Source: a virus. Taken from it: a stretch of DNA of 50,513 nt. Within the stretch, counting starts at the first letter, position 1, and each line of letters begins with the position of its first letter. Positions 1 through 50,513 of this stretch are shown piece by piece. The stretch spans positions 1 through 50,513 of IMG/VR virus record IMGVR_UViG_3300002098_000051. The stretch is one strand, 5' to 3'. The position numbers were made by a program, and so were the translations under genes. The notes under the pieces are model-generated. The model was given only the letters and a program-made list of their open reading frames with translations, was not told the DNA's origin and ran no database searches.

Positions 1-447
1 AGTGATTGTAGCGGTTGTAGCGGTTGTAACGGTTGTAGTGATTGTAGCGGTTGTAGCGGTTGTAACGGTTGTAGTGATTGTAGCGGTTGTAGCGATTGTA
101 GCCGTTGTAGCCGTTGTAGCCGTTGTAACGATTGTAGTGATTGTAGCCGTTGTAACGATTGTAACGGTTGTAGTGGTTGTAGCGGTTGTAACGGTTGTAG
201 TGATTGTAGCGGTTGTAACGGTTGTAGTGATTGTAGCGGTTGTAGCGATTGTAGCCGTTGTAGCCGTTGTAGCCGTTGTAGCCGTTGTAACGGTTGTAGT
301 GATTGTAGCGGTTGTAGTGGTTGTAACGGTTGTAGCCGTTGTAACGGTTGTAGTGATTGTAGCCGTTGTAGCGGTTGTAACGGTTGTAGTGATTGTAGCG
401 GTTGTAGCCGTTGTAGCCGTTGTAGCCGTTGTAACGATTGTAGCGGT
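1..447 (+). repeat. 9-bp-period tandem repeat array (TGT-AGY/AAC-GGT/GAT/CGT)n, left-edge part
   Basis: Direct reading shows about 50 consecutive 9-nt units with a recurring 36-nt higher-order unit, TGTAGCGGT TGTAGCGGT TGTAACGGT TGTAGTGAT. It is the same array as 50259..50513, and bases 1-81 equal 50433-50513. Confidence 0.97.
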
Positions 448-780
448 AAAAAAGGTGATGCTCCGGCATTCGAAGTTCCTGTCATCCCTAATATACACCA
501 GATGGTTTTTGATGCAGTTAGCAATCCTGGCGCGTTTGATATGGGATCGTGGCACAAATGCGAAACAACACACTGCAGAGCAGGGTGGGTTGTCGTATTA
601 GCAGGATCGGCTGGTAAAGAATTAGAGTCACGCACAACTACATTATTTGCAGCAATGCAAATATATCATAAGTCGTCTCCGGAAATAGAAGTAAGTCCGG
701 TTCGGTTTTACGAAACAAATGAAGTGGCAATGGAAGATATTAAACGATGCGCCGAAGCAGAGAAATTAGCAACTATTTAA
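1..780 (+). CDS. 3' part of junction-spanning gene: (Cys-X-X)n repeat protein with a ~110-aa C-terminal domain (5' part is 50127..50513)
   Basis: Frame +1 is open from base 1 to TAA at 778-780. Bases 1-447 read C-(S/N)-(G/D/R) repeats in the same frame as the ORF running off the right edge. The C-terminal domain contains WHKCETTHCRAGW. The track entry 502..780 is only the Met-started tail of this frame. Confidence 0.75.
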   Translation, partial: SDCSGCSGCNGCSDCSGCSGCNGCSDCSGCSDCSRCSRCSRCNDCSDCSRCNDCNGCSGCSGCNGCSDCSGCNGCSDCSGCSDCSRCSRCSRCSRCNGCSDCSGCSGCNGCSRCNGCSDCSRCSGCNGCSDCSGCSRCSRCSRCNDCSGKKGDAPAFEVPVIPNIHQMVFDAVSNPGAFDMGSWHKCETTHCRAGWVVVLAGSAGKELESRTTTLFAAMQIYHKSSPEIEVSPVRFYETNEVAMEDIKRCAEAEKLATI

Positions 781-794
781 TATGATTTAAAAAT

Positions 795-832
795 AAAAAT
801 CCATAGATAATAATCTGGATTTTTATTTTTTT
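795..832 (+). terminator. Rho-independent terminator after the junction-spanning gene
   Basis: AAAAATCCA (795-803) pairs with TGGATTTTT (816-824), followed by ATTTTTTT. It lies 15 nt after the stop codon. Confidence 0.7.
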
Positions 833-1094: not shown

Positions 1095-1964
1095 ATGAAA
1101 AAATTAGTGATATTATTTTCTGGTGGGAAGACATCGGCTATGATGACGAAGTTACTTATAGATAAATACAGAGGAAAAAGGGAAATAATAATAATATTTA
1201 ATAATACTGGCAAAGAAAAAGAAGCCACACTCGAGTTTGTAAAAAAATGTGATGAAGAGTGGCATTTAGGCGTTATATGGCTAGAGTCTATTCAACATCA
1301 CGGAGAAAGAAAAAGTGCCAGTTATAGGGTTGTCGATTTTATAACCGCAAGTCGAAACGGCGAACCGTTTGAAGATATGATAAAAAAACACGGAATACCG
1401 AATTCATCTTTCAAACATTGTAGTAGAGAATTAAAAACAAACCCTACAGTTAATTATTTAAAAGATCACCGACTCGATGAATCCGAGGTGGCTATCGGAA
1501 TAAGAATAGACGAACCTTCGCGCTTAATAAAGAACGCAAATTACAAATTTGCGATATATCCATTAGCTACAGAATGGAAAATAAATTCAGCTATGGTTCA
1601 GGGATGGTGGGCCGGACAAAACTTCAGTTTAAATTTAAAAAACTGGGAAGGTAACTGCGATATGTGCTGGAAGAAATCGAAGAGAAAACATTTGACATTA
1701 CTTCTAGATAATCCAGGTATTGCGCAATGGTGGAATGAAATGGAGATAAAGTATGGAAATTTTATCCCACCTACTCAGTCTGGCGGAAGGATTGCGCCTA
1801 TTACTTTTTTTAGAAAACACGAAAGCGTTCAGGATTTATTAGAAGACAGCAAACTGCCGTTTGATAAAATTAACGAATCTGCAATCCAGCTACACTTATT
1901 AATGTTTTTTGATCCAGAGCTAGATTCAACTGACGGCTGCGAAGAAAGTTGCGACGCAGTTTAA
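1095..1964 (+). CDS. PP-loop ATPase / PAPS-reductase-family protein
   Basis: N-terminal VILFSGGKTSAMM matches the SGGxDS PP-loop. Also has conserved-looking CSRELK and IGIRIDE..R motifs and a C-terminal Cys pair (GNCDMCW). Visibly more AT-rich than its neighbours. Confidence 0.6.
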   Translation: MKKLVILFSGGKTSAMMTKLLIDKYRGKREIIIIFNNTGKEKEATLEFVKKCDEEWHLGVIWLESIQHHGERKSASYRVVDFITASRNGEPFEDMIKKHGIPNSSFKHCSRELKTNPTVNYLKDHRLDESEVAIGIRIDEPSRLIKNANYKFAIYPLATEWKINSAMVQGWWAGQNFSLNLKNWEGNCDMCWKKSKRKHLTLLLDNPGIAQWWNEMEIKYGNFIPPTQSGGRIAPITFFRKHESVQDLLEDSKLPFDKINESAIQLHLLMFFDPELDSTDGCEESCDAV

Positions 1965-4183
1965 AAAGGTACATCATCTTCCCCTTCTTTACGATCCGGC
2001 TCCGTGTAATTTACTGGGGCCGGATTATTTAGTTTGTCCCCTGGCGTTAACTTTTCTACATAGTAGACGCTCTTCTTTGGCACGCCTTCCACACGTACCG
2101 AATGTGGCTTGAACCCCAAACTTTGCAACTCCTGCCCTATACGGTTCGGACTTAGCTTTAAACCGGTTAGCCGATCCAGTTCCACCTTAACGTCCGTGGC
2201 CGTCATTTGCTCGGCAAACTTAAATCGCTCCGGAGGGGCTGGCCGGAAATATTTGCTTATAAGCTCGTATTCATTTGTATAGCTAATATTATCCTCTGTA
2301 TTAAGAGCGAGCTCCGCGATGTCTTGCTTAGTCAACCGCCAATTATAACCGGCCTTATACAAATGATACGCAGCCATTATTACCTCTGTTTTATCTATTG
2401 TATTGTATGTAGCGTGATCGAACCCGTCGGTGGTTACCGGCAATAGTCTGGTGTTTCCGGTAGGATCATTAATGAGTTTTTTATCATTAGCTGTACCGCA
2501 TAGCACCGCCAACCGGTCGAGGTCGACATTGTTGCGCCCGTATGGTTCGCGGAGCGTGAAAACTTGTTTAGATAAAAGCTCCTTTAGACGCTTTTCGTCT
2601 TTTTTACTTTTGCCACCCATTTCGTCGTCCATGATGACGAGCTTTTGCGTCATAAGTATATCATCATCCTTACCGGCATCCAATTTGCTTTCCGCGTAGT
2701 ACGGCTGAAGTTCTTTAGGAAACAACCGGCGAAAGAATTCCGTCTTGCCTATGTTTTGCTTCTCGGATACAAACACCAACAACAAACGGCTGTGCTCGCC
2801 GAACGCCGAAGCGATCACGCCGACCAGCCATTTGGTTCCGAACTTGCGTAAATAATCGGGATTGTCTGTTTTGATCGTATTCCAAAGGTCGCCGATTGCG
2901 CCAGGGTTGTCCACCGCTACATTATCCCTGAAGTATTCATGCAAAGGATTGTAAGTAGGAGTAAAATCGCTGTTTATGATCTTGTCGAGCAATGGGTAAT
3001 CCAGCTTCTCGAAAATCTTTTTAGCGGTTACATAGATAGTATTAAAGTCTTTTTGTTGCAACGGTTTGCCATTGCTTTCAATGTAGCGGGTGATACTATT
3101 GCGCCGGAGAACGTAGTTGTGTTTCAGCCATTGCTCGACAGCGCCGACCATCGAATCGTCTGTATCTATTACGATATGATTATCAAAAACCTGATTAACT
3201 ATGTCCGTACTTTCGGACGCCGGTATTCCTTCGAATTGCTCCAGGTTTTTGATCGTGTCGGCTTTAGTGCGGCCACCTATTTGGGCCGTGCTTGCTGCCG
3301 AGGCTATTATTTGTGTTTGCTTAGAGTATAGCGGTATTCCGGCCAGTTTAATGTAATAGTAAAGCGTGGAAATAGTTATGCCGGTATTTTTGGCCCTTAC
3401 GCAGTACGTGTACTGTTTATCCGTACTGGCCCTGCTGTACTTTGCCGAGAATTGAGAAATAGCGTGATAGTATTCGCGCCCTTCTTCTGAAAACTTTTCC
3501 GCCAATGCAAAACCGCAACGAAGCCAGATCGGATAGCTTTCGCAAATATTCAAACCGCGATTAACTATTTCGTTAATAAGGTTTTCGAAATCCCCTGGCG
3601 CGTAAACTACTTTGTCTATTTTGGTTGGCGCTTTCTTTTTAGGATAGTGCGCAAACTTTGTGGACTTTTCGTTTATGTATAAACTCGGATCAAAAGAAAC
3701 ATACCTGGCCCGACTAACGTCTCGGCACGATGAGTCTACTATTATATCATAAGTTGTGTAAAGGTATTCCTGTAGCCCGTCAAACGCATCGGAGTGCCGC
3801 GCTGGGTCGATCTTAAACAATACCGCCAGGCCCGTGCCGCTAATACTTGTATAGGCCGCGTAAACGTGTTTGTCTATACATATCCGCGACTTCGTTTCCT
3901 CTGGATCGACGTCGTCTATATCTATACAGATAAGACCGGAGTGGGTTACTAAACCTTTTATATTTCTTTCTGAAAATTTACCGGATATAGTAACATAAGG
4001 GAGCTTCCCTTTTATTTTATGCCGCTCGGTTTTGTCGGTTGTTTTAGATAATGCAACACGTACCGGTAGTGCGATGTCTTGCCACTTGCCGTTACGGATA
4101 CAATCGAGAAAGAGATCGACGTTAATGTCTTTCCCGCCTGTTGTTTCCTTAATATTCGAGAATAAAGATATAACTGATTGCAT
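1961..4183 (-). CDS. DNA primase/helicase (N-terminal primase-like domain plus VirE/D5-like P-loop NTPase)
   Basis: Has Walker A (EKQNIGKTEFF) and Walker B (KLVIMDDEMGG). The N-terminal region has an acidic ICIDIDDVD motif, as in BT4734-like primase domains of Bacteroidota elements (recalled from memory). 740 aa. Confidence 0.72.
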   Translation of the reverse strand: MQSVISLFSNIKETTGGKDINVDLFLDCIRNGKWQDIALPVRVALSKTTDKTERHKIKGKLPYVTISGKFSERNIKGLVTHSGLICIDIDDVDPEETKSRICIDKHVYAAYTSISGTGLAVLFKIDPARHSDAFDGLQEYLYTTYDIIVDSSCRDVSRARYVSFDPSLYINEKSTKFAHYPKKKAPTKIDKVVYAPGDFENLINEIVNRGLNICESYPIWLRCGFALAEKFSEEGREYYHAISQFSAKYSRASTDKQYTYCVRAKNTGITISTLYYYIKLAGIPLYSKQTQIIASAASTAQIGGRTKADTIKNLEQFEGIPASESTDIVNQVFDNHIVIDTDDSMVGAVEQWLKHNYVLRRNSITRYIESNGKPLQQKDFNTIYVTAKKIFEKLDYPLLDKIINSDFTPTYNPLHEYFRDNVAVDNPGAIGDLWNTIKTDNPDYLRKFGTKWLVGVIASAFGEHSRLLLVFVSEKQNIGKTEFFRRLFPKELQPYYAESKLDAGKDDDILMTQKLVIMDDEMGGKSKKDEKRLKELLSKQVFTLREPYGRNNVDLDRLAVLCGTANDKKLINDPTGNTRLLPVTTDGFDHATYNTIDKTEVIMAAYHLYKAGYNWRLTKQDIAELALNTEDNISYTNEYELISKYFRPAPPERFKFAEQMTATDVKVELDRLTGLKLSPNRIGQELQSLGFKPHSVRVEGVPKKSVYYVEKLTPGDKLNNPAPVNYTEPDRKEGEDDVPF

Positions 4184-4399
4184 TTAATTTATCAAGGTAT
4201 AGTCGTTAGAAGATAAATGTGTTGCCACATTTTTTGAGGTGATCCATACTTCGAAGCCATTGGCGTCGGGTGTATTGATCGGCACGTCTAAAGTTTCTAC
4301 AACCGAATTGTGCCTGAAACCGTGTACCTCCTCTAACCACGCTTTATTTTGATAACAGTTGATCCTTACCCTGCGAGGGTTTGTCTTATTGGTTGCCAT
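4184..4399 (-). CDS. hypothetical protein (71 aa)
   Basis: The ORF abuts the primase start (4183/4184) in the same operon. No domain recognised. Confidence 0.5.
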   Translation of the reverse strand: MATNKTNPRRVRINCYQNKAWLEEVHGFRHNSVVETLDVPINTPDANGFEVWITSKNVATHLSSNDYTLIN

Positions 4400-4628: not shown

Positions 4629-4792
4629 AACATCATTCCATTTTTAAAATCATCATAAGTCGTCGTGTCGAGAGAATTTCTTAAAAAACGATACGGATGA
4701 TAAGACCTAAATATATTCTGTTTTATCAAAAGCCATTCTGTTATTCCTTTTTCTTTTATAAATAATTTAAGATAATAAAACGGAGGTATCAT
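4598..4792 (-). CDS. hypothetical protein (64 aa)
   Basis: ATGA start/stop overlap with the upstream methyltransferase gene (4789-4792) suggests translational coupling. Confidence 0.45.
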   Translation of the reverse strand: MIPPFYYLKLFIKEKGITEWLLIKQNIFRSYHPYRFLRNSLDTTTYDDFKNGMMLWAKMQRKIK

Positions 4793-5679
4793 TTTTTAAA
4801 GATTAAAACATTTTGGTGAACTTTTACTAATTTACCTGATTTGAAAGTTTTACCGACACGCAACATTGCCGTGCCGATTGCGTTTAATAAAATAGCCTCG
4901 TTATAAAATGCCATCCCGACGGATCGGAACGCCTTGATTGTATCTGGTACAAACCCAATATATCCTCCGTCCTTGCCGCGCACCTCGCCTACAACAAAAA
5001 CTGCATAGCCCCCTGGCTTTAATAGATCGCACGCGCGTTTAATTATTGATCGGTAAGCGATCATAAACTCTGGATATTTCATGTTGCTAATATCGCCAGA
5101 TATTTCACTATACACCTCTAAGTCGGCGTAAGGTGGACAACTAAAAACCATATCATATTCTTCAAGGAAAAGGTCTTCTAAAACCAGGTTACTATCGCCG
5201 ACAATCCAGTTTGGTAAATTGTTAGGTACGATCACGTGAGCTTGCTCGTAGTTTGAGTCTATCTGCTCTTGTCTTATATCTATACCAGTGTATTTATACC
5301 CTAAATAGTTAGCAACTATTCCTCTGACGCTTCCTCCGGCGAAGGGATCAATAATAGAACCACCCTCTGGGCAAAACCAACGGTAAAGAACTTCGGTAAG
5401 CGCTGGGTCGAAGATAGATGTTTCGCTCATTGTTCCTTCGCGTTTTTTACCATACCGCTCGTCCTTAAAGAAATTAGTGGTATCATATACAACTGCATCT
5501 CGGCCCACCTCGCTCTTAATGCCTAACGTCCCCCACAAACGTTTACGCGCCTGCCACGATCCGCTTTTCGTATCAAGCACTGAAAATGGTGGCTCTATAA
5601 ATTTATCGCGAAGCAATTCATTCTCCTGAATTGGTTCGCCAAATATATCAATTCTCGATACTTTCTGGCTCTCTGACAT
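4789..5679 (-). CDS. SAM-dependent amino-methyltransferase (N6-A/N4-C type), paralog A
   Basis: Motif I (IDPFAGGSVRG) lies about 65 aa upstream of motif IV, which here reads SCPPYADLEVY (usual form is (D/N/S)PPY). Close paralog of 7312..8187. Confidence 0.72.
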   Translation of the reverse strand: MSESQKVSRIDIFGEPIQENELLRDKFIEPPFSVLDTKSGSWQARKRLWGTLGIKSEVGRDAVVYDTTNFFKDERYGKKREGTMSETSIFDPALTEVLYRWFCPEGGSIIDPFAGGSVRGIVANYLGYKYTGIDIRQEQIDSNYEQAHVIVPNNLPNWIVGDSNLVLEDLFLEEYDMVFSCPPYADLEVYSEISGDISNMKYPEFMIAYRSIIKRACDLLKPGGYAVFVVGEVRGKDGGYIGFVPDTIKAFRSVGMAFYNEAILLNAIGTAMLRVGKTFKSGKLVKVHQNVLIFKK

Positions 5680-7315
5680 TAAATCCTAATTTAATTAGTT
5701 CCTCTTTAATTTTATCGCGACACATTTTCTTATACCATCCGTTATTTCTTTTTCCCTTTAATTTACACCATTCCCGCACCTTGTCGTATGCGTTGGCGAA
5801 AATATTTTCAAGCTGCAACTCGTTTAACTCGTTTTCGGATATGGTATTACGGGCGTATTGAGCAATATGTTTTATCATCTCGAACATTGAAAAATACTCG
5901 GAGCGATCCTTAAAAAATGCTATTGTCTTATTTACGTCAATCCCTTTGGTTACTAAAATGAAGTCTGCCGGTACAATATCAACCTCTGCCGCCTTAATTG
6001 GAAATACAAATCCGCAAGGTATTTCGCCAAACAAATCATCGTCGACATAACCTTTACAAACCCTGGCGGCGGCATGGTTAATAAAATCGCATTCCGGACA
6101 ATCCTTAACAGGCGCGACGCCGTTGCCAGGTTTTTTAGGGTTAAAGAATATATCCTCCCAGTCGCGATCATCGCACCAATCGCCGTGAGCCATTGCATTT
6201 CCGCCGAGATCAATAATAGTGAAGTGTTCCTTAAACGTGCCGTCCGAATATAGGCAAGGCCTGCCGCCGCGCCCACACTTTTGAAGCCACAGCGTAACCG
6301 ACAGCATAGCAGAATTAACGATTACCGTTTGTATTGTAGGGTCGTCGAAACCGGTTGTGGCTATACCCACATTATTAAGGATCGCGTCCGGTGTATTGCG
6401 TAGCCATTTAAAGCAATCGGCACGCCACGAATCGTAGTCTCCTTTCCACCCGTCCGGTAACCAGGAATACTCCCCAGGCTGAGGAATATTTTCTCCATCA
6501 AGGTGGCGCGAATTAAAACCGGCCTCGATAAATTGCTGATTAACAAGTTTCGAGTGAGCTATGTTGGCGTTAAAGCAAAGAGTTTTCGTGCCGATGCTAT
6601 ATTTTATATATGCATCGATTGTGTTTTGCACTTGCTTCTTTTTGCTAAACATATCTCCCATAAATGACTCATCGAACTCTCCGTTCGTTATCTTTAAGTC
6701 ATTACGATTTATATTTTTGATCGCGTAAGTTCTATTCTGAACCAGGTAGCGGTCGCGCTTAGTTTTATTTAGCTCAATTAATTCCCTTATTTGCGGCCCA
6801 CATACTATATCCTCGAAGTGGTTCTTCATAGGGTCTTTCCGTGTTGATGCAATAGGCGTCGCGGTAAAACCGAGCAAGATAACGTCGTTAAAATATGGGA
6901 ATAGTTTTTTAAAGTTTCCTATGTGCGCCTCGTCTACTATAACCATTCCGACGTCCTTGATATACGGAGCGAAGTTTGGTTTTTTGATCCGGTTGTGCAG
7001 CGTCTCGACCATTGCAACATATACGTCGGCGAAACTTACTTCTTTAATCTTAGCCTGAACGGATGAACTGACTATCTCATACCATTTGTAAAGCGTTTTC
7101 CTGGTTTGATTTAAAAGCTCATCGCGATGCACCATTATAAAAACTCGCTTACCGCTTTTTTTGACATACCTATCAACGATTGTAGAAAATATAACAGTCT
7201 TACCGCCGCCGGTTGCAAGCTGGCAAACAATACGCTTTTTCCCTGCCGCTATTTTCTTAGCGACATTTAAACAATACCCCTCCTGATATGCCTCTAACTC
7301 GTTTACTGCGATCAT
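5648..7315 (-). CDS. SF2 DEAH-box helicase (ResIII-like) with a C-terminal Cys-rich segment
   Basis: Has motif I (QLATGGGKT), motif II (VIVDEAH), motif III (GFTATP) and motif VI (QKCGRGGR). The tail contains CPECDF...AARVCKG. Confidence 0.85.
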   Translation of the reverse strand: MIAVNELEAYQEGYCLNVAKKIAAGKKRIVCQLATGGGKTVIFSTIVDRYVKKSGKRVFIMVHRDELLNQTRKTLYKWYEIVSSSVQAKIKEVSFADVYVAMVETLHNRIKKPNFAPYIKDVGMVIVDEAHIGNFKKLFPYFNDVILLGFTATPIASTRKDPMKNHFEDIVCGPQIRELIELNKTKRDRYLVQNRTYAIKNINRNDLKITNGEFDESFMGDMFSKKKQVQNTIDAYIKYSIGTKTLCFNANIAHSKLVNQQFIEAGFNSRHLDGENIPQPGEYSWLPDGWKGDYDSWRADCFKWLRNTPDAILNNVGIATTGFDDPTIQTVIVNSAMLSVTLWLQKCGRGGRPCLYSDGTFKEHFTIIDLGGNAMAHGDWCDDRDWEDIFFNPKKPGNGVAPVKDCPECDFINHAAARVCKGYVDDDLFGEIPCGFVFPIKAAEVDIVPADFILVTKGIDVNKTIAFFKDRSEYFSMFEMIKHIAQYARNTISENELNELQLENIFANAYDKVREWCKLKGKRNNGWYKKMCRDKIKEELIKLGFNVREPESIEN

Positions 7316-8187
7316 TTTACTTTCTTAAATATCAGTACGTTTTGGTGTATCTTAACCAGCTTTTTGTTTTTCATATTTCCATTCGCGCGCATAGATGCGG
7401 AGGCTATTGCGTTAAGTAATATCGCCTCGTTATAAAATTGCATACCGGCGTCGCGGAAAGCGTCGATAGTATCAGGCACGAAGCCTATGTAATTACCATT
7501 TTTATCTCTAACCTCGCCTACTACGAATATCGCATAACCGCCGTCGTTAAGTTGGCGACATGCTTTATTTATTATTGATCGGTAAGATAAAAGAAACTCT
7601 GGATAATTCATATTACTAATATCCCCTGGTAATTCCGAATACACCTCGAGATCGGCATAAGGCGGACAGGAAAATAAAAGATCAAAAGTATCAAATATTT
7701 CATCCAGAACTTTGTCGCTATCTCCGGTTAACCAGTTCGGCAGGTTATTAGGTACGATTACGCGAGCTTGCTCGTAATTGCTTTCGATCTGTTCGGGCCG
7801 GATGTCTATGCCGGTATATTTGTAGCCCAGGTAATTGGCCACAATGCCGCGCACGCTACCTCCGGCAAAGGGGTCTAAAATAGTACCACCCTCCGGACAA
7901 AACCAATGATAAAGAACTTCTGTAAGCGCAGGGTCAAAGATGGAAGTATTCAGTTTTGTGCTTTCTTTATCATTATACTCCTCTTTGTTAGTATAACTCG
8001 ACGTTCCCATCGAAAAGAGTTTACAATCCCTGCCCACCTCTGATTTGATCCCCAGAAGGCTCCACATCTTTTTGCGCTTTTGCCACGATCCGGTTTTCGT
8101 ATCTAAAATAGAGAACGGCGGTTCGATAAATTTATCCCTCAGGAGTTCGTTTTCCTCGATCTCCTGGCCCCATAAGTCTAAAGCCAT
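7312..8187 (-). CDS. SAM-dependent amino-methyltransferase (N6-A/N4-C type), paralog B
   Basis: Has LDPFAGGSVRG and SCPPYADLEVY. Collinear with 4789..5679 except for one ~27-aa divergent segment and the C-terminal ~20 aa. ATGA overlap with the helicase start. Confidence 0.72.
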   Translation of the reverse strand: MALDLWGQEIEENELLRDKFIEPPFSILDTKTGSWQKRKKMWSLLGIKSEVGRDCKLFSMGTSSYTNKEEYNDKESTKLNTSIFDPALTEVLYHWFCPEGGTILDPFAGGSVRGIVANYLGYKYTGIDIRPEQIESNYEQARVIVPNNLPNWLTGDSDKVLDEIFDTFDLLFSCPPYADLEVYSELPGDISNMNYPEFLLSYRSIINKACRQLNDGGYAIFVVGEVRDKNGNYIGFVPDTIDAFRDAGMQFYNEAILLNAIASASMRANGNMKNKKLVKIHQNVLIFKKVK

Positions 8188-13998: not shown

Positions 13999-14010
13999 TA
14001 TCTATATCTT

Positions 14011-14025: not shown

Positions 14026-14051
14026 TTTACATCAGTATAAAACAAAAAAAC

Positions 14052-14600
14052 ATGAACAACGCAGTGAAAAACTTTAGCCGTTACACCTTCCACGCAGATG
14101 GCCGTGTAACCAATACCGCAAGCGGTAAAGACATTAAGATCGACGCAAAGAGCAACGATACAAACCAATTTTACTCCCTGCTTAACGATGAGGGGAAGAA
14201 GGTTTCGGTTAAATCCTCCGTCGTAAAAGCCGAAGCCGGAAAAGCGGTTCCAGCTAAGAAGGCCACTCCAGCCAAAAAAGCTGCTCCGGCAAAGAAAGCA
14301 GCAGCTCCAAAGAAGGCCGCGCCAGCTAAGAAGGCCGCAGCTCCGAAGAAGGCAGCTAAAAAAATAGAAGACGGCGAAGGTAAAAGCCATAAGCCCACCC
14401 TCGATTACGCGAAGGCCCAGGAGATCAGAAAGAAATATTCCAAAGGGGCTAAGAAAGCAGCCCTGGCCGAAGAATACGGCGTAAGCAATGGCACGATATA
14501 TTTTGTGCTTAACTACACCAACTACCCTCTCAAGGATGGCGACACGGCTTACGTTCCAATCCCAGAAGGATGGGTTCCTCGCAGCGAAAGAGTTAAATAA
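14052..14600 (+). CDS. histone H1-like Lys/Ala/Pro-repeat DNA-binding protein with a C-terminal HTH-like segment (start revised to 14052)
   Basis: Central PAKKATPAKKAAPAKKAAAPKKAAPAKKAAAPKKAAKK repeats. C-terminal ...AALAEEYGVSNGTIYFVLNY resembles an HTH. The track start at 14022 lies inside the promoter motif. Confidence 0.55.
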   Translation: MNNAVKNFSRYTFHADGRVTNTASGKDIKIDAKSNDTNQFYSLLNDEGKKVSVKSSVVKAEAGKAVPAKKATPAKKAAPAKKAAAPKKAAPAKKAAAPKKAAKKIEDGEGKSHKPTLDYAKAQEIRKKYSKGAKKAALAEEYGVSNGTIYFVLNYTNYPLKDGDTAYVPIPEGWVPRSERVK

Positions 14601-17041: not shown

Positions 17042-17378
17042 CTTTTTTGATCCCGATTTTTTCTGCTGCTTTCCCCATGAAAGTCACTAAAATAGATTGC
17101 CCCATATATCCCAAAGCAACGAACCCGAGGCCCAGGTATCCGTCCGCCACCTTTAGCTTCGGAATTTCATCTTTGCACAAAATAGCAATAACAACCACTA
17201 AAGTCGATATACATATAGTAACCCACTCGGAGTTAAAATATGTGCCGATCTTGAAAGTGTTTGTGTCTTTTAATTGCTTTATCTTAACTAAGCAATGAAG
17301 CAAAATACCGGCGAAGCCGAGTCCGAAAAGCATTAAGTTTGAGTAAGTCATAATATTAAAAATTAACCTGATAAACAA
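17031..17378 (-). CDS. holin candidate (115 aa, about 3 TM helices, charged C-terminus)
   Basis: Hydrophobic segments LMLFGLGFAGILLHCLV, WVTICISTLVVVIAIL and LGLGFVALGYMGQSILV, with a KKDEE tail. Lies upstream of the endolysin. Confidence 0.55.
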   Translation of the reverse strand: MFIRLIFNIMTYSNLMLFGLGFAGILLHCLVKIKQLKDTNTFKIGTYFNSEWVTICISTLVVVIAILCKDEIPKLKVADGYLGLGFVALGYMGQSILVTFMGKAAEKIGIKKDEE

Positions 17379-18318
17379 ATCTATAATCTGTAGAATCAGC
17401 CAGAGCGTTTGCGTTAGATGCTATCTGGAAATTCGTTTCGTTCATGCTTATAATAAACGGCATTTTACCAGCGGCGGCAAGCGCGGCGGCAGCGGCATTT
17501 ACGGGACTAATAGAAACCCTGGGTGTACTACCGGTAGGATACTGTGGAGCATAAGATATTGTGGTTATTGTACTTCCACCTCCTGTACATCCAGTTCCTG
17601 TTGTTAGTACGAAAAAACCTTTAACGTTATCGCTTAATGATGCGAAAACTAATGTCGCGCCAGTACCGGCCCCTGCGCCTAATGTTTTTGTGGGCGAAGT
17701 TCCGTTACCTATCATAGATAATTCCCCACTCCTCCAATTAGGAATATTTAGAGTTGTGTTTGCCGTCAGCGTTGTAGGGAATTGCATTTGCAGATTAAAC
17801 AAGCTGCTTCCGTTATTCCATCCGTAAGAAATTATATTATAAGATATATTTATTCCTCTTGTGATCCCAGCCGCTATATTAGATATATAAGAACCAACCT
17901 GCGTGGCTATAAATGTATTCGTTCCGTCTATGGTAAGAAATAAAGTTGGGTTTCCGCTTATGATATTCAAATATGCCATCATTACCGATCCTATTATTTT
18001 TATAATAGAATAACCTGCCCCAGCTCCGAATCTGTTTTTATAAGTAGCGTCAGATAATTCAGGAGCTCCGGAATTTCCTCCGATATTATTAGCCGTCTGA
18101 CCGGCATTTAAAACCTGTTGAAAATTCGGAACCGCTCCGAATCCGGTTTGATAAGGAAGGGCGTTCCATTTTGTGCTTCCGTCGCCTATCTTGAATTTTT
18201 GCGTATCAGACTCTATTGCGATCTCCTTAGATGCGAGAGTTGGGTTAGATGCCGTCATTGCCGCAGCGGTTGTGCCGAAGTGAATTACGCGCCCAGGTAT
18301 CATTTGTGTATCAGACAT
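17356..18318 (-). CDS. tail fibre protein
   Basis: N-terminal LASKEIAIESDTQKFKIGDGSTKWNALPY matches the tail-fibre/Mtd-N type repeat motif. The remainder is Gly/Thr/Ser-rich. Last gene of the tail module. Confidence 0.6.
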   Translation of the reverse strand: MSDTQMIPGRVIHFGTTAAAMTASNPTLASKEIAIESDTQKFKIGDGSTKWNALPYQTGFGAVPNFQQVLNAGQTANNIGGNSGAPELSDATYKNRFGAGAGYSIIKIIGSVMMAYLNIISGNPTLFLTIDGTNTFIATQVGSYISNIAAGITRGINISYNIISYGWNNGSSLFNLQMQFPTTLTANTTLNIPNWRSGELSMIGNGTSPTKTLGAGAGTGATLVFASLSDNVKGFFVLTTGTGCTGGGSTITTISYAPQYPTGSTPRVSISPVNAAAAALAAAGKMPFIISMNETNFQIASNANALADSTDYRFVYQVNF

Positions 18319-48483: not shown

Positions 48484-48662
48484 TAACAAAAGCAAAACTG
48501 ACGCAAGCGCGTGCGCTATTGCCGGAACTTGAGCATAGGGCGTCCGTGATCCATAATAATAAAAACCCACACGAGTTGTCGATCAAACGGGAACGGGCTG
48601 CTGGTATTATATCGAAACTGAATATATTGTTAACCCCTTTTGTAATTTCATTAGACAGATGA
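48480..48662 (+). CDS. hypothetical protein (60 aa)
   Basis: ATGA overlaps at both ends. Confidence 0.45.
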   Translation: MITKAKLTQARALLPELEHRASVIHNNKNPHELSIKRERAAGIISKLNILLTPFVISLDR

Positions 48663-49309
48663 TAATAAGAGAAAAACCTAAATTATTAGATTTATACTGT
48701 TGTGCAGGTGGCGCAGGTTACGGATACGAACAGGCTGGTTTTGATGTTACTGGGGTAGATATAACAGAACAACCGAGACACAAAGGTAAATTTATAAAAT
48801 CAGATGCGATAGAATATTTAAAAGCAAATTATAAAAAATACGATGCAGTGCACGCCTCTCCGCCATGTCAAGAGTATTCTATGTCATCTTTGCAATTTCG
48901 AGTCGCAGGAAAAAAATACGATGATTTAATAAGTGTTACTCGCGACGCTTTAATTAAAACCGGACTACCTTATATAATTGAAAACGTCCCTGGTAGTCCG
49001 TTAATAAATCCCATCACTTTGTGCGGATTAATGTTTGGAATGAAAACATACAGACATAGATTATTCGAAAGTAATATATATTTAAAATCGCCTAAACACG
49101 ATAAGCATATACACGCTAACGCAAAGATGGGAAGAAAAGTTAAAGACGATGAGTTTATCCAATATGTTGGTCATTTCTCGGGAGTAAAGCTCGTGCAAGA
49201 AATGACTGGTCTTTATTGGTTGGGTCAAAAGGAATTAGCGCAATCAATACCACCACAATATACAAAATATTTAGGCGAACAACTAATAAACTTTTTAAAA
49301 AATAAATAA
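48659..49309 (+). CDS. compact C5-cytosine DNA methyltransferase-like protein (216 aa)
   Basis: Has motif I (LDLYCCAGGAGYG), motif IV (ASPPCQEYS), motif VI (IIENVPG), an RHRLFE (motif VIII-like) and a C-terminal AQSIPPQY (motif X-like). There is almost no room for a target-recognition domain. Very AT-rich. Confidence 0.65.
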   Translation: MIIREKPKLLDLYCCAGGAGYGYEQAGFDVTGVDITEQPRHKGKFIKSDAIEYLKANYKKYDAVHASPPCQEYSMSSLQFRVAGKKYDDLISVTRDALIKTGLPYIIENVPGSPLINPITLCGLMFGMKTYRHRLFESNIYLKSPKHDKHIHANAKMGRKVKDDEFIQYVGHFSGVKLVQEMTGLYWLGQKELAQSIPPQYTKYLGEQLINFLKNK

Positions 49310-49901: not shown

Positions 49902-50094
49902 ATTCCTAACCGGTTGCACCGTTCGGCATAAGCTACACAATACGGTTGTGGAGGTTTTGCCGGTTAAACCAATGGACGACGATTGTTTTGCTGGCCGTTA
50001 CCTTTATATCGAGAACGACTTTTTATATGAGGCCGGTAAAGCGCACGATGACTTTTTATTAAATAATTTCGATTTGATTGATTATTTGGCATGA
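49894..50094 (+). CDS. hypothetical protein (66 aa)
   Basis: ORF in operon context. Its stop codon lies inside the next promoter motif. Confidence 0.45.
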   Translation: MSKFLTGCTVRHKLHNTVVEVLPVKPMDDDCFAGRYLYIENDFLYEAGKAHDDFLLNNFDLIDYLA

Positions 50095-50101
50095 TAATTG
50101 T
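50087..50101 (+). promoter_or_regulatory. sigma-54 (-24/-12) type promoter motif
   Basis: TTGGCATgataaTTGT followed by ATATTAATCA, with the -12 element GT rather than GC. ATG at 50127. Confidence 0.55.
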
Positions 50102-50126
50102 ATATTAATCATAAAAACAAACAAAC

Positions 50127-50513
50127 ATGAACAAGACACAAATTTTCAACTCTTATGTAGAGTTTCTGCAACGCGCCGACAAAAATATAAACGGCGTTAG
50201 TGTTTCTTTCTCGCAAAACAACGAACTGTACGAAGAAGAAAATGAAAAAAATGAAGGATGCTGGAATTGCAGCGATTGTAGCCGTTGTAGCGGTTGTAGC
50301 CGTTGTAACGGTTGTAGCGGTTGTAGTGATTGTAGCGGTTGTAGTGGTTGTAGCGGTTGTAGTGATTGTAGCGGTTGTAGCGGTTGTAACGGTTGTAACG
50401 GTTGTAGTGATTGTAGCCGTTGTAGCGATTGTAGTGATTGTAGCGGTTGTAGCGGTTGTAACGGTTGTAGTGATTGTAGCGGTTGTAGCGGTTGTAACGG
50501 TTGTAGTGATTGT
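50127..50513 (+). CDS. 5' part of junction-spanning gene: 44-aa acidic N-terminus, then (Cys-X-X)n repeats, running off the right edge
   Basis: ATG at 50127 follows an A-rich leader. Reads MNKTQIFNSYVEFLQRADKNINGVSVSFSQNNELYEEENEKNEG, then CWN CSD CSR CSG.... The 387 nt are exactly 129 codons, so frame +1 at base 1 continues it. Confidence 0.75.
   Translation, partial: MNKTQIFNSYVEFLQRADKNINGVSVSFSQNNELYEEENEKNEGCWNCSDCSRCSGCSRCNGCSGCSDCSGCSGCSGCSDCSGCSGCNGCNGCSDCSRCSDCSDCSGCSGCNGCSDCSGCSGCNGCSDC
50259..50513 (+). repeat. 9-bp-period tandem repeat array, right-edge part
   Basis: 28 units of TGY-NNN-NNN. The final 81 nt are identical to bases 1-81. Confidence 0.97.

Follow-up and report, generated by a model that had tools for sequence, protein, structure and literature searches.

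A large family of uncharacterised phage proteins with Cys-X-X repeat arrays of variable length

A phage gene is described here whose product carries a cysteine at every third residue for about 69-78 consecutive repeats. It belongs to a large, unstudied and modular protein family, in which the length of the repeat array varies between near-identical phages. The array is probably a metal-binding rod, although this role is inferred from sequence alone, and the protein resembles nothing that has been characterised. The gene was found in the window, that is, the whole 50,513-nt stretch of viral DNA analysed (IMG/VR record IMGVR_UViG_3300002098_000051, positions 1 to 50,513), where it runs off the right edge and resumes in frame at base 1.

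A preliminary description made from the sequence alone had noticed this junction-spanning frame, and re-examination of the letters confirms what it saw. Its interpretation, on the other hand, is only partly supported. A single gene in the Cys frame and an unstable copy number both hold, but the metal or cluster binding, thiol-redox chemistry and disulfide or thioether crosslinking that it suggested remain inference, and thioether or RiPP-type maturation finds no support, with no maturase among the 30 window ORFs scanned and no conserved neighbour. Its author knew of no described phage protein of this kind, which is wrong in part: similar proteins are already in the databases, though none is characterised. 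These are found in Flavobacterium phage FL-1 (annotated in the wrong frame) and Vibrio phage 1.238.A/B (annotated as “insect antifreeze protein”), as well as in phrog_31265 and phrog_15341. Literature searches on tandem CXXC in phages, on cysteine at every third residue and on FL-1 turned up no description.

One gene across the window edge

From ATG 50127 the frame reaches position 50513 after 129 codons, ending on a TGT, and bases 1-780 continue it to TAA 778-780. The joined product is 388 aa long. It is made of a 44-aa acidic N-terminus (net charge about -4, counted by hand from the translation), 78 uninterrupted Cys-X-X units (CSG 25, CSD 19, CSR 16, CNG 14, CND 3 and CWN 1) and 110 non-repetitive residues. 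The parts are as follows.

50086..50105 (+): sigma-54-like promoter site TTGGCATGATAATTGTATAT, 41 nt upstream of the ATG, with TTGT rather than TTGC as its -12 element.
50127..50258 (+): N-terminal cap domain, 44 aa, type A (M.T.IF..Y..FL.R.D...NGVS..F......E..N..N.G), leading straight into CWNC.
50259..50513 (+): 5' part of the Cys-X-X array, 28 units plus the Cys codon of the unit split by the window edge.
1..447 (+): 3' part of the array, the S-D of the split unit plus 49 units.
1..81 (no strand): terminal direct repeat, identical to 50433-50513, inside a 36-nt higher-order repeat (CSD CSG CSG CNG).
448..477 (+): linker between the array and the C-terminal domain (KKGDAPAFEV), of variable length among homologs.
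478..780 (+): conserved C-terminal helical domain plus the stop codon, with the invariant His/Cys motif WHKCETTHCRAGW encoded at 550-588.
789..830 (+): A/T-rich, terminator-like hairpin ending in a T-run, directly followed by the next sigma-54-like site (831-850).

Tandem Repeats Finder reports 9-nt arrays at 6-447 (49.1 copies) and 50267-50506 (26.7 copies), and the pattern is far beyond chance. The last 81 nt equal the first 81 nt, as do the last 45 and 9 nt, because the ends fall in the higher-order repeat. The array therefore has 78 units if the ends abut, 69 if the overlap is collapsed, or more if the assembly broke inside it; as all of these overlaps are multiples of 9, the frame holds either way. 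To fix the copy number, the same phage was looked for elsewhere, but megablast against phage records, an exact 47-mer in IMG/VR and a degenerate 26-aa pattern in JGI metagenomes all gave no match. The window's own gene had been called only as a 79-aa stub (P0001), which is not in the contig index.

Could the array simply be a mis-assembled or non-coding tandem repeat, for example an origin or packaging signal, with a fortuitous ORF? The contig does end inside the array with an ambiguous overlap, many contigs break at this position, and three other frames are also open across the array alone. However, only this frame is open from the N-terminal domain through to the C-terminal domain, and both halves join conserved domains of one protein family. 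In 77 IMG/VR loci the array always lies in the frame of the C-terminal domain. Different phages use AGT, AGC, TCA, TCC, TCT or TCG for Ser and TGT or TGC for Cys, each array being internally homogeneous, yet position 2 is Ser in 80% of 2,159 units and position 3 is D, G or R in 85%. Homologs conserving the DNA repeat but not the Cys frame had been named beforehand as a refuting outcome; the reverse was observed, since the peptide is conserved and the DNA repeat is not. Arrays of 35-56 units, and one of about 66 units with a few irregular ones, are moreover spanned in frame inside contigs of up to 981 kb and in isolate genomes. An artefact is thus very improbable.

The preliminary description also gave the gene its own sigma-54-type promoter (50087) and a terminator (795-832), making it a discrete expression unit. 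The site at 50087 reads TGGCAT-GATAA-TTGTA, with GT rather than GC at -12, where the consensus is TGGCAC-N5-TTGCW with GG at -24 and GC at -12. It is one of seven matches to TTGGCAYGRTWAWTG, all on the + strand and upstream of ORFs, against 0.12 expected by chance; four of the seven are perfect TGGCAC-N5-TTGC sites. Promoter function is putative, predicted from sequence only. The hairpin at 789-830 folds at -17.2 kcal/mol (z = -4.19 against shuffles), although it was not picked up by a GC-stem scan.

The gene lies among accessory and replication genes, with a C5-methyltransferase-like gene upstream, PAPS reductase downstream, and a primase-helicase, two ParB-like/N6-N4 methyltransferases, an SNF2 helicase and a sliding clamp on the other strand. 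Prophage and phage contexts of relatives are also early-region-like. Clustering of ORFs within ±3 kb of the 80 related IMG/VR loci plus the rotated window found only the gene itself recurring, so that no conserved partner or maturase was identified. For the same reason, a link to the adjacent PAPS reductase as a sulfur carrier was rejected.

A modular family with arrays of changing length

The C-terminal 110 aa match phrog_31265 (E = 1e-30) and the repeat matches phrog_15341, both PHROGs of unknown function. With tblastn, the C-terminal domain is found in Flavobacterium phage FL-1 and in 19 Ralstonia phage records. A search of 5.8 billion proteins gives 267 homologs, and a profile search of 1.84 billion representatives gives 1,733 clusters at 50% identity, always with the domain at the C-terminus. 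This domain of about 100 aa reads PVIxNIH ... WHxCxTTHCRAGW ... RF[FY]E..E.A..D.KRCAE, with invariant H, W-H and T-H-C-R-x-G-W, and the window protein carries it. Full-length relatives share the N-terminal 45 aa or so (M.T.IF..Y..FL.R.D...NGVS..FA...GCWNC), a run of C-x-x units, a linker and the C-terminal domain. The type-A cap, to which the window protein conforms, is conserved in about 50 proteins and 72 loci, and 61 further proteins with cap plus array were found. In all, 421 IMG/VR loci encode a relative of the full-length cap-array-domain query.

Of the 147 listed representatives of the C-terminal domain that were new in this search, 44 carry Cys-X-X arrays behind two unrelated N-caps: type A, seen here, and type B, which reads W..D.NGN..S..YFGS.E.A..AL.SL..C.NC. 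Both cap lineages converge on C-S-[D/G/R] units. Another 41 carry pentapeptide repeats, 32 carry other N-terminal regions, including LRR-like repeats and another repeat type, and 30 are short. The Ralstonia phage proteins are bona fide pentapeptide-repeat proteins (Pfam Pentapeptide, E = 4e-41). Conversely, the type-A cap plus array occurs without the C-terminal domain, as in 52-90-aa proteins in metagenomes (two such loci, L085 and L087, have no C-terminal domain downstream) and in gene NVP1238A_68 of Vibrio phage 1.238.A/B, which has 24 units. Genome contigs place the family in Dyadobacter, Spirosoma, Flavobacteriales, Rhizorhapis, Phyllobacterium, Kaistia and others, while the pentapeptide forms occur in Xanthomonas, Paracoccus and others. 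Prophage or phage copies are present in Bacteroidota, Alpha-, Beta- and Gammaproteobacteria and other phyla.

The nearly identical 9-nt units had suggested an unstable copy number, and this is borne out. Among the IMG/VR loci, L011 and L020 have 100% identical flanks over 1,500 nt but 28 vs 25 units, L019 and L041 have 97% identical flanks but 30 vs 50 units, and L027 and L075 have the same unit number with unit substitutions. Mutagenesis of the AAC codons by a diversity-generating retroelement was rejected by inspection, as the variation is not adenine-specific. A contig end cuts 14 of the 77 IMG/VR loci, and several genome loci, inside the array, just as in the window. In the IMG/VR loci, complete arrays of at least 15 units span 15-51 units; genome contigs add one of 56 units inside a 970-kb contig and the one of about 66 units inside a 981-kb contig. 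An array of 69-78 units is therefore the longest seen but continuous with the rest, although short-read collapse cannot be excluded for any single count. Unit number shows no parity or multiple-of-4 preference, and no super-period is shared across arrays.

These properties have practical consequences, since the array breaks short-read assemblies at a predictable place and is mis-handled by gene callers. FL-1 has 36 units, but its deposited CDS is in the Ala-Pro-Val frame and a 1-nt frameshift splits the C-terminal domain.

Inferred structure and role of the array

AlphaFold models the cap with pLDDT 92-94 in the relative P0006 and 81-87 in the window protein. The C-terminal helical domain mostly scores 87-96, with a dip at the invariant WH.C.TTHCRAGW loop, while the array scores only 46-54 in P0006 and 31-49 in the window protein. 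Foldseek of the model found nothing in PDB (best E = 1.5) and only the FL-1 fragment in BFVD, and a PDB sequence profile search found nothing. Pfam, NCBIfam and PADLOC scans of the whole protein, of both end domains and of relatives gave only sub-threshold, collagen-like low-complexity hits, so that no match explains either domain. The array alone hit PDB 8zxl (“spindle fibril”) at E = 1.8e-19, but with bias 98 and no aligned domain, and this hit was tentatively set aside as compositional.

What the analysis establishes, from sequence comparison, is a translated phage gene in which selection keeps the peptide repeat and not the DNA; the array changes length in frame, 9 nt at a time, the cap plus array can stand alone, no partner gene is conserved, and the same C-terminal domain follows pentapeptide-repeat modules in sister proteins. 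Everything beyond this is inferred, including metal binding itself. The N-terminus has no visible signal peptide (direct reading), so the protein is probably cytoplasmic, where stable disulfides are unlikely. In this reducing environment the array would bind metal ions through its thiolates (Zn most likely; Fe, Fe-S or Cu possible). It would then form an elongated, capped, metal-stitched rod or solenoid, its length tuned by slipped-strand gain and loss of units, and take the structural place of the pentapeptide beta-helix. The protein would act as an early-expressed binder of a host component, in host takeover or anti-defence.

This reading is the best-supported inference but tentative, with a probability of about 0.4. 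It rests on the selected frame, the modularity, the autonomy of the cap plus array, the length variation and the lack of a conserved neighbour, on the Cys content of the array (33%) at CxxC spacing, which is that of zinc knuckles, of the ferredoxin CxxCxxC motif and of metallothioneins, on the position of the array where sister proteins carry solenoid repeats, and on the genomic setting. The contrast between confidently modelled ends and a poorly modelled array fits a cofactor-dependent fold, but it fits plain disorder equally well. No metal-binding family, fold or motif model matched, and a strict lattice of four Cys per metal would predict the parity or super-period that was not seen. The equivalence with pentapeptide modules rests on position only, and the biological role is a guess from gene neighbourhood alone. 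DNA mimicry is unlikely, as the net charge is only mildly acidic (about -0.18 per unit).

Alternatively, the array might be a ribosomally made, phytochelatin- or metallothionein-like thiol polymer without defined structure, buffering or sequestering Zn, Cu, Cd or Fe, or reactive oxygen species and electrophiles, during infection, with length simply setting capacity. The Cys content, the free length variation, the unconstrained unit number and the absence of a modelled fold would all suit such a sponge. It is nevertheless the less likely reading, because a sponge needs neither a conserved folded N-cap that always abuts the first CWNC nor a conserved C-terminal domain; in addition, positions 2 and 3 are strongly restricted to S and D/G/R in two independent cap lineages, and sister proteins carry structured repeats in the same place.

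A bolder and improbable possibility is that the capped (Cys-Ser-X)n array folds around a continuous file of metal or iron-sulfur centres. This would be a genetically length-tunable metallo-solenoid or “protein wire”, a new repeat-protein fold class that would replace the pentapeptide beta-helix in a widespread family of phage host-takeover proteins and that phages would adjust by 9-nt slippage. An even rarer variant is not excluded either, in which the G-C-S-rich array is azole-modified into a giant microcin-B17-like gyrase ligand, mirroring the pentapeptide sister proteins, which by analogy with MfpA, Qnr and McbG may bind gyrase.

Whatever its role, a perfect Cys-every-third-residue polymer of up to about 78 units, kept by selection on the peptide and changing length between otherwise identical phages, has no characterised counterpart. 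It could reveal a new metal-dependent repeat fold, a new phage strategy against the host or a new modified-peptide class, and it offers a natural length-programmable poly-thiol scaffold. Cultured systems exist (Flavobacterium phage FL-1 and Vibrio phage 1.238.A/B), making the question tractable.

Comparison with known Cys-rich and repeat proteins

The closest sequence analogue is the heterocycloanthracin/sonorensin family of bacteriocin precursors (TIGR03601, PF27784; the latter is listed against sonorensin in a detection-rule table, PMC13289728). In both cases a conserved N-terminal region is followed by Cys-Xaa-Xaa units whose number varies in whole units between strains, and the gene can lie far from any partner genes; Haft 2009 (PMC2674419) describes such strain-variable cores with distant maturases. 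By analogy, the N-cap could be a leader and the Cys/Ser-rich array could be heterocyclised to thiazoles and oxazoles, as in heterocycloanthracin or microcin B17, or otherwise crosslinked, by enzymes encoded in the host or at a distant locus. The leader-plus-repetitive-core layout, the stand-alone 52-90-aa forms and weak hits of TIGR03601 and PF27784 to the core of P0006 lend this some colour. G-C-S is a bis-heterocycle site in microcin B17, a Gly/Cys/Ser-rich azole peptide that poisons gyrase. The microcin B17 operon carries a pentapeptide-repeat immunity protein (PMC10886550), a coincidence that echoes the pentapeptide sister proteins and is a lead only.

This substrate reading is however very unlikely. 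The TIGR03601 hit to P0006 covers only core positions 38-86, at 18.3 bits against a cut-off of 35, and the window protein gives no hit at E <= 1. The known precursors are about 88 aa, have about 13 Cys and end with the core, whereas the window protein is four times too long, its leader is not homologous, and a conserved 110-aa domain follows the core. No YcaO, cyclodehydratase, ThiF-like scaffold or nitroreductase-type dehydrogenase was found in the 30 window ORFs scanned. Hosts span several phyla, so reliance on a host maturase is unlikely, and the phages are those of Bacteroidota and Proteobacteria, not Bacillus. Finally, the N-cap is predicted to be folded, and D or R often precedes Cys.

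Metallothioneins and phytochelatins, together with ferredoxin CxxCxxC and zinc-knuckle CxxC motifs, share with the array about one-third Cys at C-X-X-C spacing, the lack of an aromatic core and a probably cytoplasmic location, and thiolate-metal clusters are chemically expected. There is no sequence or profile similarity to them, and the array is far longer, perfectly periodic, restricted at positions 2 and 3, and flanked by two conserved folded domains. A metallothionein is a low-molecular-weight protein with about 30% Cys in C-X-C / C-X-X-C motifs that binds d10 metals in thiolate clusters; the composition of the array (33% Cys) fits this, but the size and the flanking domains do not.

The Tenebrio molitor antifreeze beta-helix (PDB 1EZG; IPR016133) likewise has a periodic Cys-rich repeat with Ser/Thr, Asp/Asn and Gly between the cysteines. 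A disulfide-laced helix of this kind, working outside the cytoplasm or in the virion as a structural or adhesive rod, could be suggested by the phmmer hit of the array to 1EZG (E = 0.023), by the annotation of the Vibrio phage homolog and by the 12-aa higher-order unit of the window array. It is very doubtful. The hit leaves every second Cys unmatched, and Tenebrio has secreted, disulfide-bonded 12-residue TCTxSxxCxxAx coils with Cys every 6 residues and a T-C-T ice-binding face, whereas here Cys occurs every 3 residues, there is no T-C-T motif, and no hydrophobic signal sequence is visible in MNKTQIFNSYVEFLQRADKN. No 12-aa period is found across arrays, the gene sits among early and replication genes rather than structural ones, and AlphaFold, which models beta-helices well, gives the window array a pLDDT of only 31-49.

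Last come the pentapeptide-repeat proteins. The repeat of the window protein is a 3-residue Cys unit and not A(D/N)LXX, with no Pfam Pentapeptide (PF00805) match. The pentapeptide proteins fused to the same C-terminal domain are themselves uncharacterised, so the gyrase link of MfpA, Qnr and McbG is only an analogy. With these sister proteins (e.g., Ralstonia phage RsoP1IDN gp4, AUG85443.1, and Bakoly gp1), the C-terminal domain is homologous (52-57% identity), the layout of N-cap, tandem repeat module and C-terminal domain is the same, the exposed residues are of the same kinds (S, D/N, R, G), and the genes sit in phage early regions.

Sigma-54-like sites and other genes in the window

Several features of the window accompany the Cys-repeat gene, and are as follows:
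831, 11975, 13922, 14010, 32224, 44798 and 50086 (+ strand), seven sigma-54-like sites
1095-1964 (+), a PAPS-reductase-family gene, immediately downstream of the Cys-repeat gene
4789-5679 and 7312-8187 (-), two paralogous ParB-like/N6-N4 DNA methyltransferases
14051-14600 (+), a Lys/Ala-rich repeat protein, with a tandem repeat at 14249-14353
17356-18318 (-), a weak hit to Mtd_N
48659-49309 (+), a C5-methyltransferase-like gene

The seven sigma-54-like sites correspond to TTGGCAYGRTWAWTG(C), are all found on the + strand, and each lies shortly upstream of an ORF. Four of them are perfect TGGCAC-N5-TTGC sites, while only 0.12 would be expected by chance for the whole set, which suggests an RpoN-dependent transcription programme in this phage. 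Directly behind the perfect site at 14010 is encoded the Lys/Ala-rich protein, which is histone-H1-like (…AKKATPAKKAAPAKKAAAPKKAAPAKKAAAPKKAAKK…) and whose repeats are specified by an 18-nt tandem repeat. The two ParB-like/N6-N4 methyltransferases flank an SNF2-type helicase. As for the ORF at 17356-18318, it gives only a weak hit to the N-terminal domain of the major tropism determinant (Mtd_N, 25.1 bits against a cut-off of 26.3), and it may be a receptor-binding protein of the type diversified by diversity-generating retroelements.

Homologous genes in cultured phages

In Flavobacterium phage FL-1 (KY421186.2, positions 3497-4313), the homologous gene has 36 Cys-X-X units. However, it is annotated in the wrong (Ala-Pro-Val) frame as CDS 3609-3953, and a 1-nt frameshift after CETT splits the C-terminal domain, reflecting either a sequencing error or a pseudogene. 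In Vibrio phage 1.238.A (MG592603.1, positions 2998-3372), NVP1238A_68 is annotated “insect antifreeze protein” (IPR016133), but it is made up of the type-A cap, the N-terminal domain also carried by the window's protein, followed by 24 Cys-X-X units rich in K, E, and D. It has no C-terminal domain, and it offers a cultured system for experiments.

Long arrays and assembly breakpoints

The second-longest array found, at about 66 units, is at positions 2486-3553 of a 981-kb contig from a Spirosoma sp. MAG (locus L097). It contains occasional irregular units (CSGSGC, CSRCCVC), which shows that long arrays tolerate small in-frame imperfections. Many public viral and MAG contigs begin or end inside this gene's array (loci L028, L036, L039, L040, L046, L058, L059, L061, L065, L068, L072, L078, L080, and L081, as well as L099, L101, L103, L107, and L113 in our numbering of the related loci). 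The repeat is a recurrent assembly breakpoint, and it may create false “circular” overlaps.

Comparison with other proteins

When compared to PDB sequences, the array scored E = 1.8e-19 against a 780-aa chain (8zxl_X / 9ius, “spindlefibril | axialfibril”), although with a composition bias of 98 and no aligned domain, and this match was set aside as compositional. Among the relatives carrying the C-terminal domain, this same domain is also fused to LRR-like repeats (protein P0267) and, in P0222 and P0261, to another repeat type (…ICLAAVKQNGYAL.YV…) which recalls DUF4116, a resemblance judged by eye only. This reinforces the idea of an interchangeable repeat module.
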